A stretch of 64,000 bases of DNA from Patescibacteria group bacterium (GTDB lineage: Bacteria > Patescibacteriota > Dojkabacteria > J137): the NCBI GenBank assembly GCA_963169855.1, contig CAUJCN010000002.1, positions 5,508-69,507 on the forward strand. Reading direction: 5' to 3'. Every line of letters begins with the position of its first letter. Position 1 is the first letter of the stretch. Under the pieces are notes generated by a model. That model searched no databases. It worked only from the letters and a program-made list of their open reading frames with translations, and was not told the DNA's origin. Below, one piece after another: positions 15,529 to 59,386 of this stretch. The translations under genes and the position numbers were made by a program.

Positions 15529-16020
15529 TTAGTTCTTGTAAATGATTTCTTCTATAGGAAGATCCTTTGGATAATCAAAGTTTCCTTCAGGCAGTTGATA
15601 ATCTGGTTGAACATAAGCCAAAGTAATTCGAGGCTTAAATTCGTATCTTCTGAAAGGATCTTGATCAAAAACATTAAAACTTTTTGCGATTGATGCTAGA
15701 GAACCATCTTCGTCTATAACTTCTACCATTAATACTTTGTACATTCCTTGAAAACCAGTTTTCACAAAAAGCCTACCTAATTTGATTGTTTTGACATCTA
15801 AGGAGTCAAGCCTTGTTTTCATTGAATCTCTGTTAATGTGATCGTCTAAAAGTCCAAAAACAAAAGTCAAATGTAACTTGTCTGTTACGTTTCCGTTAAT
15901 TCTTGGAACGGTATCAGATTTGTAAAAGTCCGATGGTTTACATACTTGATTTACTAATTCAGTGAATTTTGATGCAGTATCTTTTTCAATAACTGCCACA
16001 ACATGTCCTTCGTTTCCCAT
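15529..16020 (-). CDS. 2H phosphoesterase family (Acb1/LigT-like), second HxT replaced by RxT
   Basis: LHLT and FKPRITLAY; clear paralog of 58420-58962. Confidence 0.7.
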   Translation of the reverse strand: MGNEGHVVAVIEKDTASKFTELVNQVCKPSDFYKSDTVPRINGNVTDKLHLTFVFGLLDDHINRDSMKTRLDSLDVKTIKLGRLFVKTGFQGMYKVLMVEVIDEDGSLASIAKSFNVFDQDPFRRYEFKPRITLAYVQPDYQLPEGNFDYPKDLPIEEIIYKN

Positions 16021-16634: not shown

Positions 16635-16752
16635 TAAAATCATGTAAAAGCCAGAAGTTTAAAGCTAAATGGCACGATATTTTCAAGTATCTCGAAGAAT
16701 GAAATTTGTATTTTAATCTTTGAATCTTTATATTTTTAATTTTTTAGTAATT

Positions 16753-17463
16753 ATGGCAAATCTACCAATAACTCCATCTTCATACATGCCTAACTTGTTA
16801 CACATTGTTCCACCATACACTGGCGAAGAACGAACTGTAGTTAATGCGATTGTGGAAGTAAACTCAAACTCAATTAACAAATACGAAATAATTACAGAAA
16901 CAGGTCATCTTAAATTAGATAGAGTTGGATATTCAAGTCTAGCGTATCCTTTTACTTACGGTGCAATTCCTAGAACCTGGGATTTGGACGGAGATCCTTT
17001 AGATGTGGTTATTGTAAATGTAGCAGAGCCTTTGATCCCTGGATCACTTGTTGAAGCAAGAATTATTGGAGTTATGAAATTCGTTGATGGAGGAGAAGTT
17101 GATGATAAAGTTATTGCAGTTTTAAACGATGATAAAAGAGTCGATCATATCAAAACTATTGCTGACTTAGGCGAATACTGGGTAAAGGAAGCAACCTACT
17201 ACTGGGAACATTACAAAGATTTAAAGAAACCAGGCACTGGGAAAGTGGAAGGATTCTTCGATTTAGAAGTAGCTCAACAGGTTATTAACGAATGTGCAGA
17301 TAGATATGTAGAAGATTTTCTACCAAAGCTAGATGCTGATAGCTCATGCGCTTGTGGCTGTGAAGGATGCGAAGATTGCGATTGCGAAAATTGCCAGGAA
17401 GATCAAGAAGGACATTGTCATTGCGACTGTGAAGCTTGTGCATCTCAACATGTAGCTCACTAA
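16753..17463 (+). CDS. ppa: Family I inorganic pyrophosphatase with Cys/His-rich C-terminal tail
   Basis: NKYE, LDR, YGAIPRT, DGDPLD, DDK, HYKDL; ATG at 16753. Confidence 0.92.
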   Translation: MANLPITPSSYMPNLLHIVPPYTGEERTVVNAIVEVNSNSINKYEIITETGHLKLDRVGYSSLAYPFTYGAIPRTWDLDGDPLDVVIVNVAEPLIPGSLVEARIIGVMKFVDGGEVDDKVIAVLNDDKRVDHIKTIADLGEYWVKEATYYWEHYKDLKKPGTGKVEGFFDLEVAQQVINECADRYVEDFLPKLDADSSCACGCEGCEDCDCENCQEDQEGHCHCDCEACASQHVAH

Positions 17464-18077: not shown

Positions 18078-18092
18078 AATTCCCCTATAGTA

Positions 18093-18120
18093 TTGCAATC
18101 GTATACAAAAGTGCTACAAT
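18093..18120 (+). promoter_or_regulatory. Sigma70 promoter giving a probable leaderless transcript
   Basis: TTGCAA-16 nt-TACAAT with TG extension; the expected +1 falls at or near the ATG at 18127. Confidence 0.6.
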
Positions 18121-18126
18121 AACTGC

Positions 18127-18222
18127 ATGAAAAATAATTTAAAGCTGACAAACTCATGGTCAAAGCATTCAACAAGAATGTTTAGATATCTACACCTTGT
18201 AGAGCCAGGAGCTGTAAGTTAG
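18127..18222 (+). CDS. Putative attenuator leader peptide MKNNLKLTNSWSKHSTRMFRYLHLVEPGAVS
   Basis: 31-codon ORF right behind the promoter; its CCAGGAG (18205-18211) is complementary to CTCCTGG (18250-18256) in the downstream terminator. Confidence 0.65.
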   Translation: MKNNLKLTNSWSKHSTRMFRYLHLVEPGAVS

Positions 18223-18247
18223 TTAGCAAATATTTTTCAACTAAAAG

Positions 18248-18271
18248 ACCTCCTGGAAAGGAGGTTTTTTT
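18248..18271 (+). terminator. Attenuator terminator upstream of a three-gene operon
   Basis: ACCTCC-TGGAAA-GGAGGT followed by a T run. Confidence 0.8.
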
Positions 18272-18375
18272 ATACCTTATTTTTATTCCTGAAATGAATT
18301 CAGGATTATAAGGATTTTACTTATTCCCGTAACACGTACGGGATTATGTAGAAGTTTATTTTTTATTATTATTTT

Positions 18376-19539
18376 ATGAGCAAAGCTCAACAAGAAATAC
18401 AATCTGTATTCGGTGCTATTCCGGTTGCAGAAGCTTTGGCGAACCCAACATTGGTTCTCGCCGACGGATCAAGTTCGTCTCCGAATTTGCGTTCGTTAGA
18501 AATGGTGTTAACAGCAATATTCGTTAGCAGATACACCGGTGAGGTTGTAACAAATTTCTATCATGGTTCTTCTTTTAGAGAAACTGCTGACAATACTTGT
18601 CTGTGGTTGAGAAAGATGGGCTTCAAGTTAGACAGAGGTTTGTTAGAGCTTCACTTTAATAGATACTTTGGTGATCCGCAGTTGCGTATAGACAACATTG
18701 CTCAGAAAATGAGAAGTAAAGGCAAAAGTGAAGAAAGCATCCAAAGGAGAATTGATTCGTTTGTATGCAATTTGCCAGTTTCTGTCTTTTCAAAAGATGG
18801 AAAAAGTCTGGTCGATCTTATTCAGACCACTAGAGAAGAAACAACAGAATTTATTTCAAATCAATTGGATTTGCAGAAACAAGGGAGTTTTATTGTAGAG
18901 AAAGCATCTGAGATGTTCGGATCAATAACTCCAAATGATGTAATTAGTAATACTGATTCTGAATTTCTAGCAAGATATCCTGTAATGAAAATCTGCTGCC
19001 CAGAGTGCTCGTTAAGTAATGAAGATGAGCCCATCGAGCACGGAGTTTCTGCAGATGGACAAATCTTTCAAAGTGTTGGAGGTGTTTCAACAAATGGGAA
19101 AATTGCTCAGAACTGTTCGTTTATAAAGAACTTAAATGAGTTCTTGTCGGGACAAACTGTTCTAGACCTTCCCGTAAGAGAGTTAATAAACATGGGTTTC
19201 AAAATTAGTGGAAAATTAATCTATTTATTAGAAACATTCTTGTACAAAAACCCAAACATAACTCAAGCAGTAAGAGCGTACTCAAATCCAAACGGAACTA
19301 TTTCTAAAGCGGCGTCAACTTACGAAGGATTAACAATCCTAACTCCGCCTTTGTACATTTATGTTTGCGATAACGGTGAGATGCGGGATGCAAACATTTT
19401 TGAGTTGATGGAGTTTATTGCAGACGGAGAAGGATTGCTACTTCTCAAAGAATTTGTATCACAGATACCGTTAGTAGACGATGGTGTTAAAAGAGTTTTA
19501 GACATTTCTAGTAAACAGATTTTAGTAACTGAATTATGA
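18376..19539 (+). CDS. Uncharacterised protein; possibly a divergent Rossmann-fold (class I aaRS-like) ligase with a Zn site
   Basis: 387 aa. Beta-strand/loop LVLADGSSSSP, LPVS segment and YPVMKICCPEC are loosely reminiscent of class I LysRS. No canonical HIGH/KMSKS. Confidence 0.4.
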   Translation: MSKAQQEIQSVFGAIPVAEALANPTLVLADGSSSSPNLRSLEMVLTAIFVSRYTGEVVTNFYHGSSFRETADNTCLWLRKMGFKLDRGLLELHFNRYFGDPQLRIDNIAQKMRSKGKSEESIQRRIDSFVCNLPVSVFSKDGKSLVDLIQTTREETTEFISNQLDLQKQGSFIVEKASEMFGSITPNDVISNTDSEFLARYPVMKICCPECSLSNEDEPIEHGVSADGQIFQSVGGVSTNGKIAQNCSFIKNLNEFLSGQTVLDLPVRELINMGFKISGKLIYLLETFLYKNPNITQAVRAYSNPNGTISKAASTYEGLTILTPPLYIYVCDNGEMRDANIFELMEFIADGEGLLLLKEFVSQIPLVDDGVKRVLDISSKQILVTEL

Positions 19540-20660
19540 AAATATTAAACATACACGATTATCCACCAACAGAAGGTGGTGGAGTTGAAGTTAATGTAAG
19601 CCGAGTTGGGTCTGCATTGGTTCAAAAAGGAATTCAGTACAGAATTCTAACTAGTAGAAAAATTTCATCAGTTATTAAAAGTAATAGTTCGCAATCTGAG
19701 TTTTCTAAAGATGGTGTTGAGATAAAAATCATAAATAGTTTAAGCGAGTTGAACGATGAAATTATTAATGCTGATATAGTTAATGTTCACTTAACGTTTT
19801 CTTTAAGAACTTTAACAATGATGGCAATTGAATTATGTGCTCAACTTAATAAAAAAACTATTGTTTCTTTACGCACAACTTTCAAACATATACCCTTCTC
19901 TGCTTTGGGTGGTTTAACATCTATAGAAAAAGAGTATCAGTTAAATAAGTTAACAAAGTTATTGTCACAAGATAACTTTGTTTTAGCTGCACCATCGGTA
20001 TATTTAAAAGAGACGCTTAGCTTCTTAGGATTGAACAAACAATTAAACGTGGTTCATAATGGAATCTCTATTGTAAACAATGCCACTAGTGATAAAGAGT
20101 CTACGATATCAGTTGTCGATTTTACTTATATTGGTAATCTATCAGTTCTTAAAAACGTAGAAGGTTTATTAGAAGCATTTGCAAAACTGAACAAATTAAT
20201 TCCGAATACAAAATTAAGACTTATTGGTAACGGAGAACTAATGAATGAAGTACTTCAAAAAATTGAATACTTTGAACTAGCAAGTTCCGTAGAAGTGCTT
20301 GGATATGTTGAAAATAGGTATATTTCTGATTACTTAAAAAGTACAAAAGTACTTATACATCCGTCGTTAACAGAAGCATGGTGTAACTCAGTTGCGGAAG
20401 CCCTATCTATAGGAATTCCTGTAATCGCTTCTGGAGTTGAAGGTCTTCGTGAATTGACACAGGAGGGTAGCTTTGCAGATCTAGTTATCCCAGGTGATAC
20501 GGAATCTTTGTTTCTATCAATGAAAGAAATTCTGGAATCTAAAACAAAATACTTACATTTAAAATCTAAAGCAGACAAAGCAAAAGACTTTGTATTGTCT
20601 AACTATACGATTGAGAATCAAGCGGATCAATTAATTAAACTTTACAAATCCTTATTATGA
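19536..20660 (+). CDS. GT4 (GT-B) glycosyltransferase, MshA/BshA-like
   Basis: YPPTEGGGVE, HNGI, KNVEGLL, PSLTEAWCNSVAEA (E-x7-E), GIPVIAS. Confidence 0.9.
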   Translation: MKILNIHDYPPTEGGGVEVNVSRVGSALVQKGIQYRILTSRKISSVIKSNSSQSEFSKDGVEIKIINSLSELNDEIINADIVNVHLTFSLRTLTMMAIELCAQLNKKTIVSLRTTFKHIPFSALGGLTSIEKEYQLNKLTKLLSQDNFVLAAPSVYLKETLSFLGLNKQLNVVHNGISIVNNATSDKESTISVVDFTYIGNLSVLKNVEGLLEAFAKLNKLIPNTKLRLIGNGELMNEVLQKIEYFELASSVEVLGYVENRYISDYLKSTKVLIHPSLTEAWCNSVAEALSIGIPVIASGVEGLRELTQEGSFADLVIPGDTESLFLSMKEILESKTKYLHLKSKADKAKDFVLSNYTIENQADQLIKLYKSLL

Positions 20661-21364
20661 AAAATGAAAATAAAAGAGTGTTAATTTTTACACCTCACCC
20701 AGATGACCACATTAGTTGCGGTGGTGCAATATTAAAGCTTGTAAAAAAAGGTTATGAAATTTATGAAGTTCTTTTCACAAACGGGGAAACTGGAGGTCAA
20801 ATTGGAAAAGTTGATGTAGATAAAAATGAACTTGTTCAAATACGAAAAACAGAGTTCGATAAGGCAACCGAAATCATTGGAACAAAAGAGATATTTAGAA
20901 TGAATATCCCAACAAACAACGTCGAATATAGTCCTGAATTATTTTTTGAGTTGATAAGAATCATTCGAGAGGTAAAACCAGTGTTGGCAATTATTCCTCA
21001 CAAGGATGACTATCACAGAGATCACAGAGAAGTAAGTGTGATTTCACAAGACGCTCTTACAAGAGCAGACAACAGTTTCGCCTTGCATTTAGGTGCAAGA
21101 TTCAGAGTTCCTGTGGTTCTTAGTTGTCGTGGCTTAAATCCATTAACTCGTGTAGATCTAATGGTTGATATTTCTGAAGAATTTAATCAATTGCAAAAAG
21201 TTGTCGAAGTATACAGTTCTCAGATTACGCCAAGATTGAAACAGTATACAGAATCACTTCCTAGTGCAGCTGGTTATTACATGAGAACACAATATGCAGA
21301 GGAGTATGAAGTTCCATTGAATCTTCCTATTTTTCCAAATGAAGTGTTAAAAGATTTAGCTTAG
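20657..21364 (+). CDS. PIG-L/LmbE family deacetylase (BshB/MshB-like)
   Basis: PHPDD, TNGE, R..E, HRDH, YSSQ. Confidence 0.9.
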   Translation: MKNENKRVLIFTPHPDDHISCGGAILKLVKKGYEIYEVLFTNGETGGQIGKVDVDKNELVQIRKTEFDKATEIIGTKEIFRMNIPTNNVEYSPELFFELIRIIREVKPVLAIIPHKDDYHRDHREVSVISQDALTRADNSFALHLGARFRVPVVLSCRGLNPLTRVDLMVDISEEFNQLQKVVEVYSSQITPRLKQYTESLPSAAGYYMRTQYAEEYEVPLNLPIFPNEVLKDLA

Positions 21365-21442
21365 ATCAAGTAAAATTGACTATTCAGAAACATAGTTCGT
21401 GCATATCATAGCAGTTAGTAATTTATTTATTATTTAACTGCT

Positions 21443-21763
21443 ATGAATATTTCTGTTTTAAATTTCCCACCTACACATCAGGCAACTTTAGTTCCAAAAC
21501 CAGAATTTCGGATTGATTATAATGATTCGGTTACTAATCAAATATCAAAATTCATTAAAAAACTTGAAGAGTATCATTGTCAACCCTGTCTATCAGGTTT
21601 CATAACAGAAAACGTATTACATGCTTTAAACATTACTAATCACGAAGATTTTGTTCGATATAGAGTTATTTCGGATTTGTTTAACTTTTACAAGCTGCAC
21701 CCAATACCTCAGTTATATAAAGCAATTTGCTTGGAAGTGCTTTCGCTTGGAGTTGAGCAGTAA
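21443..21763 (+). CDS. Hypothetical protein
   Basis: 106-aa ORF, no recognised motif. Confidence 0.5.
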   Translation: MNISVLNFPPTHQATLVPKPEFRIDYNDSVTNQISKFIKKLEEYHCQPCLSGFITENVLHALNITNHEDFVRYRVISDLFNFYKLHPIPQLYKAICLEVLSLGVEQ

Positions 21764-21814
21764 TTTGCATAACAAAAAACTTAAGTGCTAGAATTTTTTA
21801 GTTAAAATTACATT

Positions 21815-22159
21815 ATGGGAGTTTCGGGTTTACCAATACCAGATAATAACTGGACAATAGAGAATGTTTCACCAATTTGGGAAAAACCTACTTTTATTCA
21901 GAGTCAATCAGATCAATTTACTCTTTACCAAGATATTTGTCTGTATGTTATGAAGTTAATACTTCACCATACAACCAAATTGGCAGATGGATGGATTACT
22001 CCAGAAAATCCAATACACAAGCTTTCTGCAACAGATCGGGTTCAGATCTTAACAAGTATTTATGCAGATCTGGAATCGTTGAGAGATACACATAGTTCTC
22101 CTGAATTAGATCGAGCAATAATCGAAATTCGTGCAAGAAAAGAGGAACTTCTAATGTAG
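21815..22159 (+). CDS. Hypothetical protein
   Basis: 114-aa ORF preceded by TGCTAGAAT extended -10. Confidence 0.55.
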   Translation: MGVSGLPIPDNNWTIENVSPIWEKPTFIQSQSDQFTLYQDICLYVMKLILHHTTKLADGWITPENPIHKLSATDRVQILTSIYADLESLRDTHSSPELDRAIIEIRARKEELLM

Positions 22160-22207
22160 AACTAGTTTTCTTAATGTACTAGAATATATTTAGTTAACAA
22201 AAACTCT

Positions 22208-58419: not shown

Positions 58420-58962
58420 CTAAGAGCCATTTTGCGCGTTCACTTCCTTATTAAATTCTGAAACTAAATTAATTCTAACTTTGCTTACGTCTATTCTCCT
58501 AGGCAATTCTGGCAAGTTATCAGGTAATACGAAATCGTTCGCTACATAAGCCAATGTTAAATGGGGTCTGAATTCTCTAATTTTAAAGTTCGGATCGTCA
58601 TTTAGTACATATTCTTCAATACTACTTAAAAGTTCATGAAGCTTACCATTGCTATCTAAGACTTCAACAATTAAAACTTTGTATAGATTTTCGTAACCAT
58701 CAATGTATGAAAGTTTACCTAGTTCTAGATCTTCAACTGTATTCTGACTTAGAACTTCGATAAGTTTTGCATCTAGTCTGTGATCAACATTTAACCCAAA
58801 GAATACTGTACAGTGAAGTGTTTTGGACATATTACCTCTAATATGTTCAACAACTGGCGAATAGTAAAACTGTTCCTTCGAAATAATGCTATTCAAGAAT
58901 TTATCAAAAGTATCTATTGTTTTCTGCGTAAATCTTAATTCTACAAATGCATGATCGTTCAT
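58420..58962 (-). CDS. 2H phosphoesterase family (Acb1/LigT-like)
   Basis: Two HxT motifs, LHCT and FRPHLTLAY. Confidence 0.8.
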   Translation of the reverse strand: MNDHAFVELRFTQKTIDTFDKFLNSIISKEQFYYSPVVEHIRGNMSKTLHCTVFFGLNVDHRLDAKLIEVLSQNTVEDLELGKLSYIDGYENLYKVLIVEVLDSNGKLHELLSSIEEYVLNDDPNFKIREFRPHLTLAYVANDFVLPDNLPELPRRIDVSKVRINLVSEFNKEVNAQNGS

Positions 58963-59042: not shown

Positions 59043-59073
59043 AAAAAAGCACTCCGGGTAGAGTGCTCTTTTT
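59043..59073 (-). terminator. Intrinsic (possibly bidirectional) terminator
   Basis: A6-GCACTC-CGGGTA-GAGTGC-TC-T5. Confidence 0.8.
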
Positions 59074-59173
59074 GACCCTACGGTACGAAAATACAAACCG
59101 TATTTGTGATGAGATTAAGTCCGTCCTACAATGGTTTCAAGGCATAGGACTCAATCTTAATCAGTCTACGTTT

Positions 59174-59386
59174 TCACTTAGTTTTAGCTAAGTTATTCGA
59201 TTCTAGCTTAGTAAAAAGTTTTGAAACTTTATCAATATTTTTGGGATTGGCGTCTTTGATCTTCAGGTATTCGTCAATAAATATATCTGCTAGAGACTCT
59301 ACAAATGCAATTATATCTTCAACTTCGTCATCAGTATAATTTTCCTTACTAAGAGAGAGCCTCTTCCTCGTTTCTTCAATTTTCAT
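59174..59386 (-). CDS. Small helical protein of a type often seen beside serine recombinases
   Basis: MKIEETRKRL...YTDDEVEDII.F...LADIFID; the family link is from recollection, not a search. Confidence 0.55.
   Translation of the reverse strand: MKIEETRKRLSLSKENYTDDEVEDIIAFVESLADIFIDEYLKIKDANPKNIDKVSKLFTKLESNNLAKTK

Follow-up and report, generated by a model that had tools for sequence, protein, structure and literature searches.

The window, i.e., the whole 64,000-nucleotide stretch that was analysed, belongs to a genome of 1.06 Mb and carries on its forward strand three ORFs that are coupled, in the ORF reading, by ATGA overlaps at 19536–19539 and 20657–20660. They encode an orphan protein, a GT4 glycosyltransferase, and a PIG-L/LmbE de-N-acetylase (Table 1). 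The first-pass annotation described a three-gene unit here, and its ORFs, lengths, overlaps, and quoted motifs are all present as stated. The unit also extends 5′ of the trio, where a promoter-like site, a leader ORF, and a terminator occupy 18093–18271.

Table 1. Features of the trio operon and its leader, in window coordinates
Feature	Coordinates	Strand	Description
Sigma-70-like promoter candidate	18093–18120	+	TTGCAA, 16 nt, TG-extended TACAAT; 9/12 matches
Leader ORF	18127–18222	+	31 codons, MKNNLKLTNSWSKHSTRMFRYLHLVEPGAVS; no single-residue run
Antiterminator segment	18205–18215	+	Leader codons 27–30; complementary to the terminator 5′ arm
Intrinsic terminator hairpin and T run	18243–18271	+	About 105 nt 5′ of the first gene, about 170 nt 3′ of dcd
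Orphan gene	18376–19539	+	387 aa; putative aminoacyl transferase/ligase (inferred function)
GT4 glycosyltransferase gene	19536–20660	+	374 aa; PF00534, E 7e-27
PIG-L/LmbE de-N-acetylase gene	20657–21364	+	235 aa; PF02585, E 2e-24

The slot between dcd and a Gmad2-domain gene (window 18078–22200) carries different cargo in congeners. The trio is missing from the equivalent slot in both congeners, where the flanking genes are kept, and it is therefore accessory; in congener G002, an unrelated 163-aa ORF occupies the slot. Two more orphan ORFs (21443–21763 and 21815–22159) lie 3′ of the trio and have no Pfam match. Elsewhere in the window, two similar small proteins of the minus strand (15529–16020, 163 aa, and about 58420–58960, about 180 aa) each contain two H-x-T motifs, which we take to be a 2H-phosphoesterase signature. 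The 163-aa protein has no real Pfam match, and a homologue is located at the equivalent place in G002. About 85 nt 5′ of the second 2H-like gene, the intergenic stretch 59045–59200 (minus strand) ends in a terminator hairpin without a leader ORF and is possibly a non-coding RNA or a regulatory leader. The inorganic pyrophosphatase at 16720–17463 (plus strand) has a Cys/His/acidic tail at its C-terminus, which G002 shares and which may bind metal.

The orphan, GT4, and PIG-L genes are kept together in all six distinct loci for which DNA context exists. The order is orphan–GT4–PIG-L in the window, G026, G596, and L031, and PIG-L–GT4–orphan in G298 and G674, so that the neighbourhood conservation proposed earlier as a check is found with two gene orders. 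The pairwise identities across loci are 25–37% for the orphan, 36–49% for GT4, and 22–68% for PIG-L; since all six loci hold the three genes despite such low orphan identities, the linkage exceeds chance. The count covers these six loci, and approximately 20 further orphan relatives come without genomic context. In the G674 locus, a P-loop kinase-like ORF and an ORF that we take, from its motif, to be nucleotidyltransferase-like (no Pfam match) face the trio between tRNA-like genes (L036, 5471–6891), a region that is possibly an island of modifying enzymes.

A word-indexed search returned two orphan relatives besides the orphan itself, and an exhaustive search returned 24 proteins at E ≤ 0.001, including one spurious repeat protein and two fragments. 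Whole-genome searches with the orphan profile gave hits in 3 of 61 relatives (one spurious), 2 of 401 genomes of the phylum, 3 of 221 genomes of the class, 2 of 134 in the class of G298, and 0 of 2 and 0 of 401 in two other classes; these sets overlap, and the 61, 401 (phylum), and 221 (class) counts include the window's own genome. A metagenome scan contributed two more trio loci, one of them near-identical to G026. Meanwhile, a GT4 pattern scan of a species-level genome collection recovered three loci, all previously found, and missed G674, which indicates that the trio is rare but undercounted. No description of the trio was found in the literature searched, subscription journals and supplements being outside its scope.

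The promoter candidate before the leader is weak alone, as 13 such sites are found against 13.4 expected; by eye, similar boxes stand 5′ of the leaders of G026, G298, and G674. The leader ORF is probably translated from a leaderless mRNA, as its ATG lies 7 nt 3′ of the −10 box. Leader ORFs of 25–44 codons exist at the equivalent place in all five loci with upstream DNA, the G596 region being cut by a contig end and absent from this count. In G026, L031, G298, and G674, the layout precedes the first operon gene, whichever gene that is. Furthermore, the same order of an ORF, an antiterminator at the 3′ end of the ORF, and a terminator 25–37 nt after the stop is observed in all five. The five leaders have no clear shared sequence and no residue run in common, and each has three or four Asn codons. 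Asp codons are absent from the 173 leader codons (0/173). For the hairpin in Table 1, the site scan reports the minus strand only.

In folding calculations, the window leader with its terminator is more stable than expected (z = −5.4; 0 of 200 shuffles as good), and the four loci folded give z = −5.4, −2.6, −4.3, and −4.8. With terminator arms picked by eye and the transcript ending before the terminator 3′ arm, the probability that the 5′ arm is sequestered in the window is 0.95 for a ribosome on codons 2–8 and 0.0 for a ribosome on the last six codons. Across the five loci, the corresponding values are 0.81–0.99 and 0.0–0.48, the switch being weak in G026 (0.48). The observed amplitude is reached by 0, 2, 0, 0, and 0 of 40 shuffles per locus (0 of 40 in the window). 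Equilibrium folding of the full terminator transcript forms the terminator in nearly every case, so the switch requires co-transcriptional kinetics. When no ribosome is modelled, three of the four loci folded in this way (G000, G026, and G298) still form the antiterminator, and the default state thus varies between loci. Taken together, the models predict that the element is quite probably a ribosome-mediated transcription attenuator.

It is distinctly unlikely, in our estimate, that the chemistry proposed below holds while the leader is an attenuator responding to amino-acid starvation, or a plain terminator accompanied by an ORF that arose by chance. AT-rich intergenic DNA commonly contains short ORFs, the Asn codons and the terminator favoured at equilibrium would suit such a reading, and the best Rfam match, although sub-threshold at 28.8 bits (gathering score, 55), is the Phe leader. 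However, the constant layout in five of five loci and the lack of a common residue run argue against it, as does the placement of the terminator. Most terminators in this genome are located approximately 20–60 nt after a stop, whereas only five intergenic ones stand immediately 5′ of a gene and over 110 nt away from any gene preceding them, four of them with an ORF candidate. For the attenuator, the absence of control codons makes general translation slowing, e.g., by a ribosome-targeting antibiotic, the probable inducing signal; that drug-type stalling is the natural signal we consider evenly balanced. The first-pass annotation offered a thiol, an osmolyte, or a drug modification as the product without noticing the attenuator, which favours the drug or stress options over a housekeeping thiol or osmolyte.

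No Pfam match of the orphan falls below E 0.12, and NCBIfam gives none; the 21 relatives scanned have no meaningful Pfam match, and the family profile finds nothing below E 0.23 among PDB sequences. Excluding fragments, the relatives are 333–454 aa long. The alignment comprises 27 sequences, including four relatives read from genomes. In this alignment, position 32 is Ser in 25, Cys in one, and Thr in one, and position 33 is Ser or Thr in 23. E42 is conserved in 26, G274, G279, and Y302 in all 27, and R306 and G307 in 25 each. The zinc-module residues C208, C211, H222, and C247 are present in 26 sequences each. The G596 relative (L010, 1–1340) has lost the entire CxxC-H-C module, so the module is non-essential in some members; this protein may also have an N-terminal extension of approximately 130 aa. 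Besides R306, the conserved arginines include R39 (20/27), R153 (22/27), R300 (23/27), and R325 (20/27), which could contact an acidic side chain or tRNA, and the residue in register with E41 of LysRS is small.

In all three comparisons, the top fold match of the single predicted model is the class I LysRS 1irx, within 1 Z unit of BshC (4wbd). The LysRS-I resemblance suspected in the first annotation therefore holds at the level of the predicted fold, in a tie with BshC. Foldseek returned nothing at E ≤ 0.001 in the PDB, the TM-score is 0.39, and the rmsd exceeds 5 Å in the structural aligner. The orphan is accordingly modelled, as a prediction, with a class I aaRS-like (HUP/Rossmann) catalytic domain and a connective-peptide-type CxxC-H-C zinc insert. 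Its motifs are collinear with those of 1irx, among them the CxxC insert, and W218 and H240 also fall in matching positions, but the first His of HIGH is deleted within a 5-residue gap, KMSKS is absent, and the identity is 11%. Neither an HxG[HN] motif nor a KMSKS-type motif occurs in any of the 27 sequences, whereas KMSKS is present in the CPR LysRS-I sequences compared. There is no anticodon-binding domain, the model stopping where residue 323 of the 508 in 1irx aligns. Sequence homology with LysRS-I is not significant by hhalign (P 0.057–0.18), hmmsearch places LysRS-I no higher than rank 18 among 674, and no significant PF01921 match is found. On these grounds, the orphan was rejected as a true class I LysRS. 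The window genome encodes a full-length class II LysRS-type protein. A 361-aa protein at G000:C2:94890–95921 (plus strand) consists of a class II LysRS catalytic domain only and is presumably EpmA/GenX-like.

MshC works with HIGH and KMSKS, its zinc ligands C43, C231, and H256 select cysteine, and the alpha-amino group is bound by G44 and T46 (PMC9736012). When the orphan is mapped onto MshC by motif register and not by coordinates, the zinc ligands correspond to positions 30, 287, and 306, which are occupied by Asp, a variable residue, and Arg, and the G/A-x-S/T loop is kept. Among the 27 sequences, Cys is never seen at position 30 and once at position 287, and His once at position 306. The orphan thus seems able to hold an aminoacyl group, and seems able neither to adenylate nor to select cysteine in the MshC manner. 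Therefore, the orphan was rejected as an MshC, and the ATP-dependent MshC-type ligase of the first-pass annotation finds no support, as both ATP motifs are lost throughout the family. What survives is the MshA/B/C-type chemical logic, which the conserved trio suggests.

The partner genes were likewise rejected as equivalogs of BshA or MshA and of BshB or MshB, as all scores fall below the family cut-offs. The best NCBIfam match of GT4 is BshA (79.6 bits against 273.7; MshA, 39.2 against 462.5), and that of PIG-L is BshB1 (91.6 against 182.5), other BshB/MshB models giving 54.8 of 195.25 and 19.9 of 224.35 bits. The orphan and its 21 relatives have no Pfam or NCBIfam match to the BshC family. 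These scores, the missing cysteine-binding zinc ligands (register inferred), and the poor fit between a housekeeping redox buffer and an accessory cassette that is rare and preceded by a ribosome-sensing attenuator argue against a thiol product, one of the options first raised. It is thus very unlikely that the trio makes a mycothiol- or bacillithiol-like thiol with the orphan as a cysteine ligase, whether ATP-dependent through non-canonical residues or BshC-like.

By its Pfam match and its HxDD and HxxH motifs, gene 3 is a PIG-L/LmbE deacetylase, with intact metal motifs (H14-P-D-D17 and H120-x-x-H123). The fifth residue of HPDDx is His in three loci, Asn in one, and Asp in two, and Cys in the best PDB match, a diacetylchitobiose deacetylase; the HPDDH that had been singled out is thus without significance. 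The deacetylase partner suggests that the GT4 donor is probably UDP-GlcNAc. Many acceptors are served by GT4 and deacetylase modules. The weak NCBIfam matches include a GT4 producing GlcNAc-phosphatidylglycerol, which is compatible with the GT4 and PIG-L enzymes glucosaminylating a lipid, possibly host-derived, or a macromolecule such as tRNA, rRNA, or a translation factor, with no small-molecule product; the orphan would then be an RNA-binding scaffold, a hydrolase, or a ligase for that target. A synthetase-derived fold with many conserved arginines suits RNA binding, and ribosome or tRNA modification would suit stall induction. However, no conserved membrane protein or flippase adjoins the trio in the six loci read, the near-invariant pocket residues E42, Y302, and S/C/T32 look catalytic, and the most similar characterised enzymes of the GT4 and PIG-L types have small-molecule substrates. 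Such a macromolecular or lipid target is, in our judgement, unlikely.

The preferred reading is an accessory, stall-induced pathway that would add an aminoacyl-glucosamine to an acceptor, to which we give an even chance. During normal leader translation, the ribosome is predicted to cover the antiterminator, the terminator forms, and transcription would stop. When the ribosome lags or stalls early, the free antiterminator would capture the terminator 5′ arm and the operon would be transcribed. The GT4 would then transfer GlcNAc to an acceptor hydroxyl, PIG-L would strip the acetyl group from the transferred GlcNAc, and the orphan would join an amino acid to the freed amine as an amide. The synthetase fold and the alpha-amino loop are kept while both ATP signatures are lost, so the orphan most likely takes a pre-activated donor, probably aminoacyl-tRNA; by analogy, and provided that amide formation is indeed the orphan's role, the case for this donor stands at about even. 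The aminoacyl group possibly passes via the serine at position 32, as in the cyclodipeptide synthases. The AlbC family combines a class I-derived fold with aminoacyl-tRNA-dependent amide synthesis, and its nucleophile is a serine of the loop that follows the first strand (PMC3105412). That serine is expected two residues after the Gly of the first Rossmann strand; the candidates in the orphan are position 32 (S/C/T in 27 of 27) and position 33 (S/T in 23 of 27), in a register that is ambiguous without coordinates.

If true, this pathway would have a third, independently derived synthetase-like enzyme completing a GlcNAc-transfer and deacetylation route, in bacteria thought to produce almost no small molecules. 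The leader offers a practical way into the function, since its inducer would be the first candidate substrate, and if the substrate were an antibiotic, the inactivation chemistry would be undescribed. A more far-reaching proposal, which we put forward as unlikely, is a stall-inducible defence of Patescibacteria, in which an aminoacyl-glucosamine tag would disable an antibiotic aimed at the ribosome, or protect the translation apparatus. The enzyme attaching it would represent a third family of aminoacyl-tRNA-dependent amide synthases, derived from LysRS-I.

Compared with the known systems, the trio is mycothiol/bacillithiol-like in chemical logic and a member of neither pathway. BshC, the ligase of the bacillithiol pathway, had an activated donor that was still unknown according to a 2018 review (PMC5790435). 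The loss of ATP motifs in the orphan parallels BshC, and the question of an aminoacyl-tRNA donor bears on that of BshC; however, BshC has 540 aa against 387 aa in the orphan, the orphan has a zinc insert, and, in contrast to the bacillithiol pathway, the trio is a seldom found accessory operon with an attenuator in its leader. Aminoglycoside scaffolds, too, receive GlcNAc and are then deacetylated, by AprM/AprN and by NeoF with a deacetylase (PMC13707489), so such a pair does not imply a thiol. These tailoring pairs are biosynthetic steps in producer clusters with no third synthetase-like enzyme, whereas the trio has no scaffold genes adjoining. The B. subtilis antibiotic-resistance genes bmrCD, vmlR, and tlrB are preceded by a uORF, an anti-antiterminator/antiterminator, and a terminator, with antibiotic-induced stalling leading to read-through (PMC13689557; PMC9226507). 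The trio leader resembles these attenuators in layout, but the B. subtilis leaders control pumps, ABC-F proteins, and methyltransferases, whereas the leader here precedes a glycosylation–aminoacylation trio.
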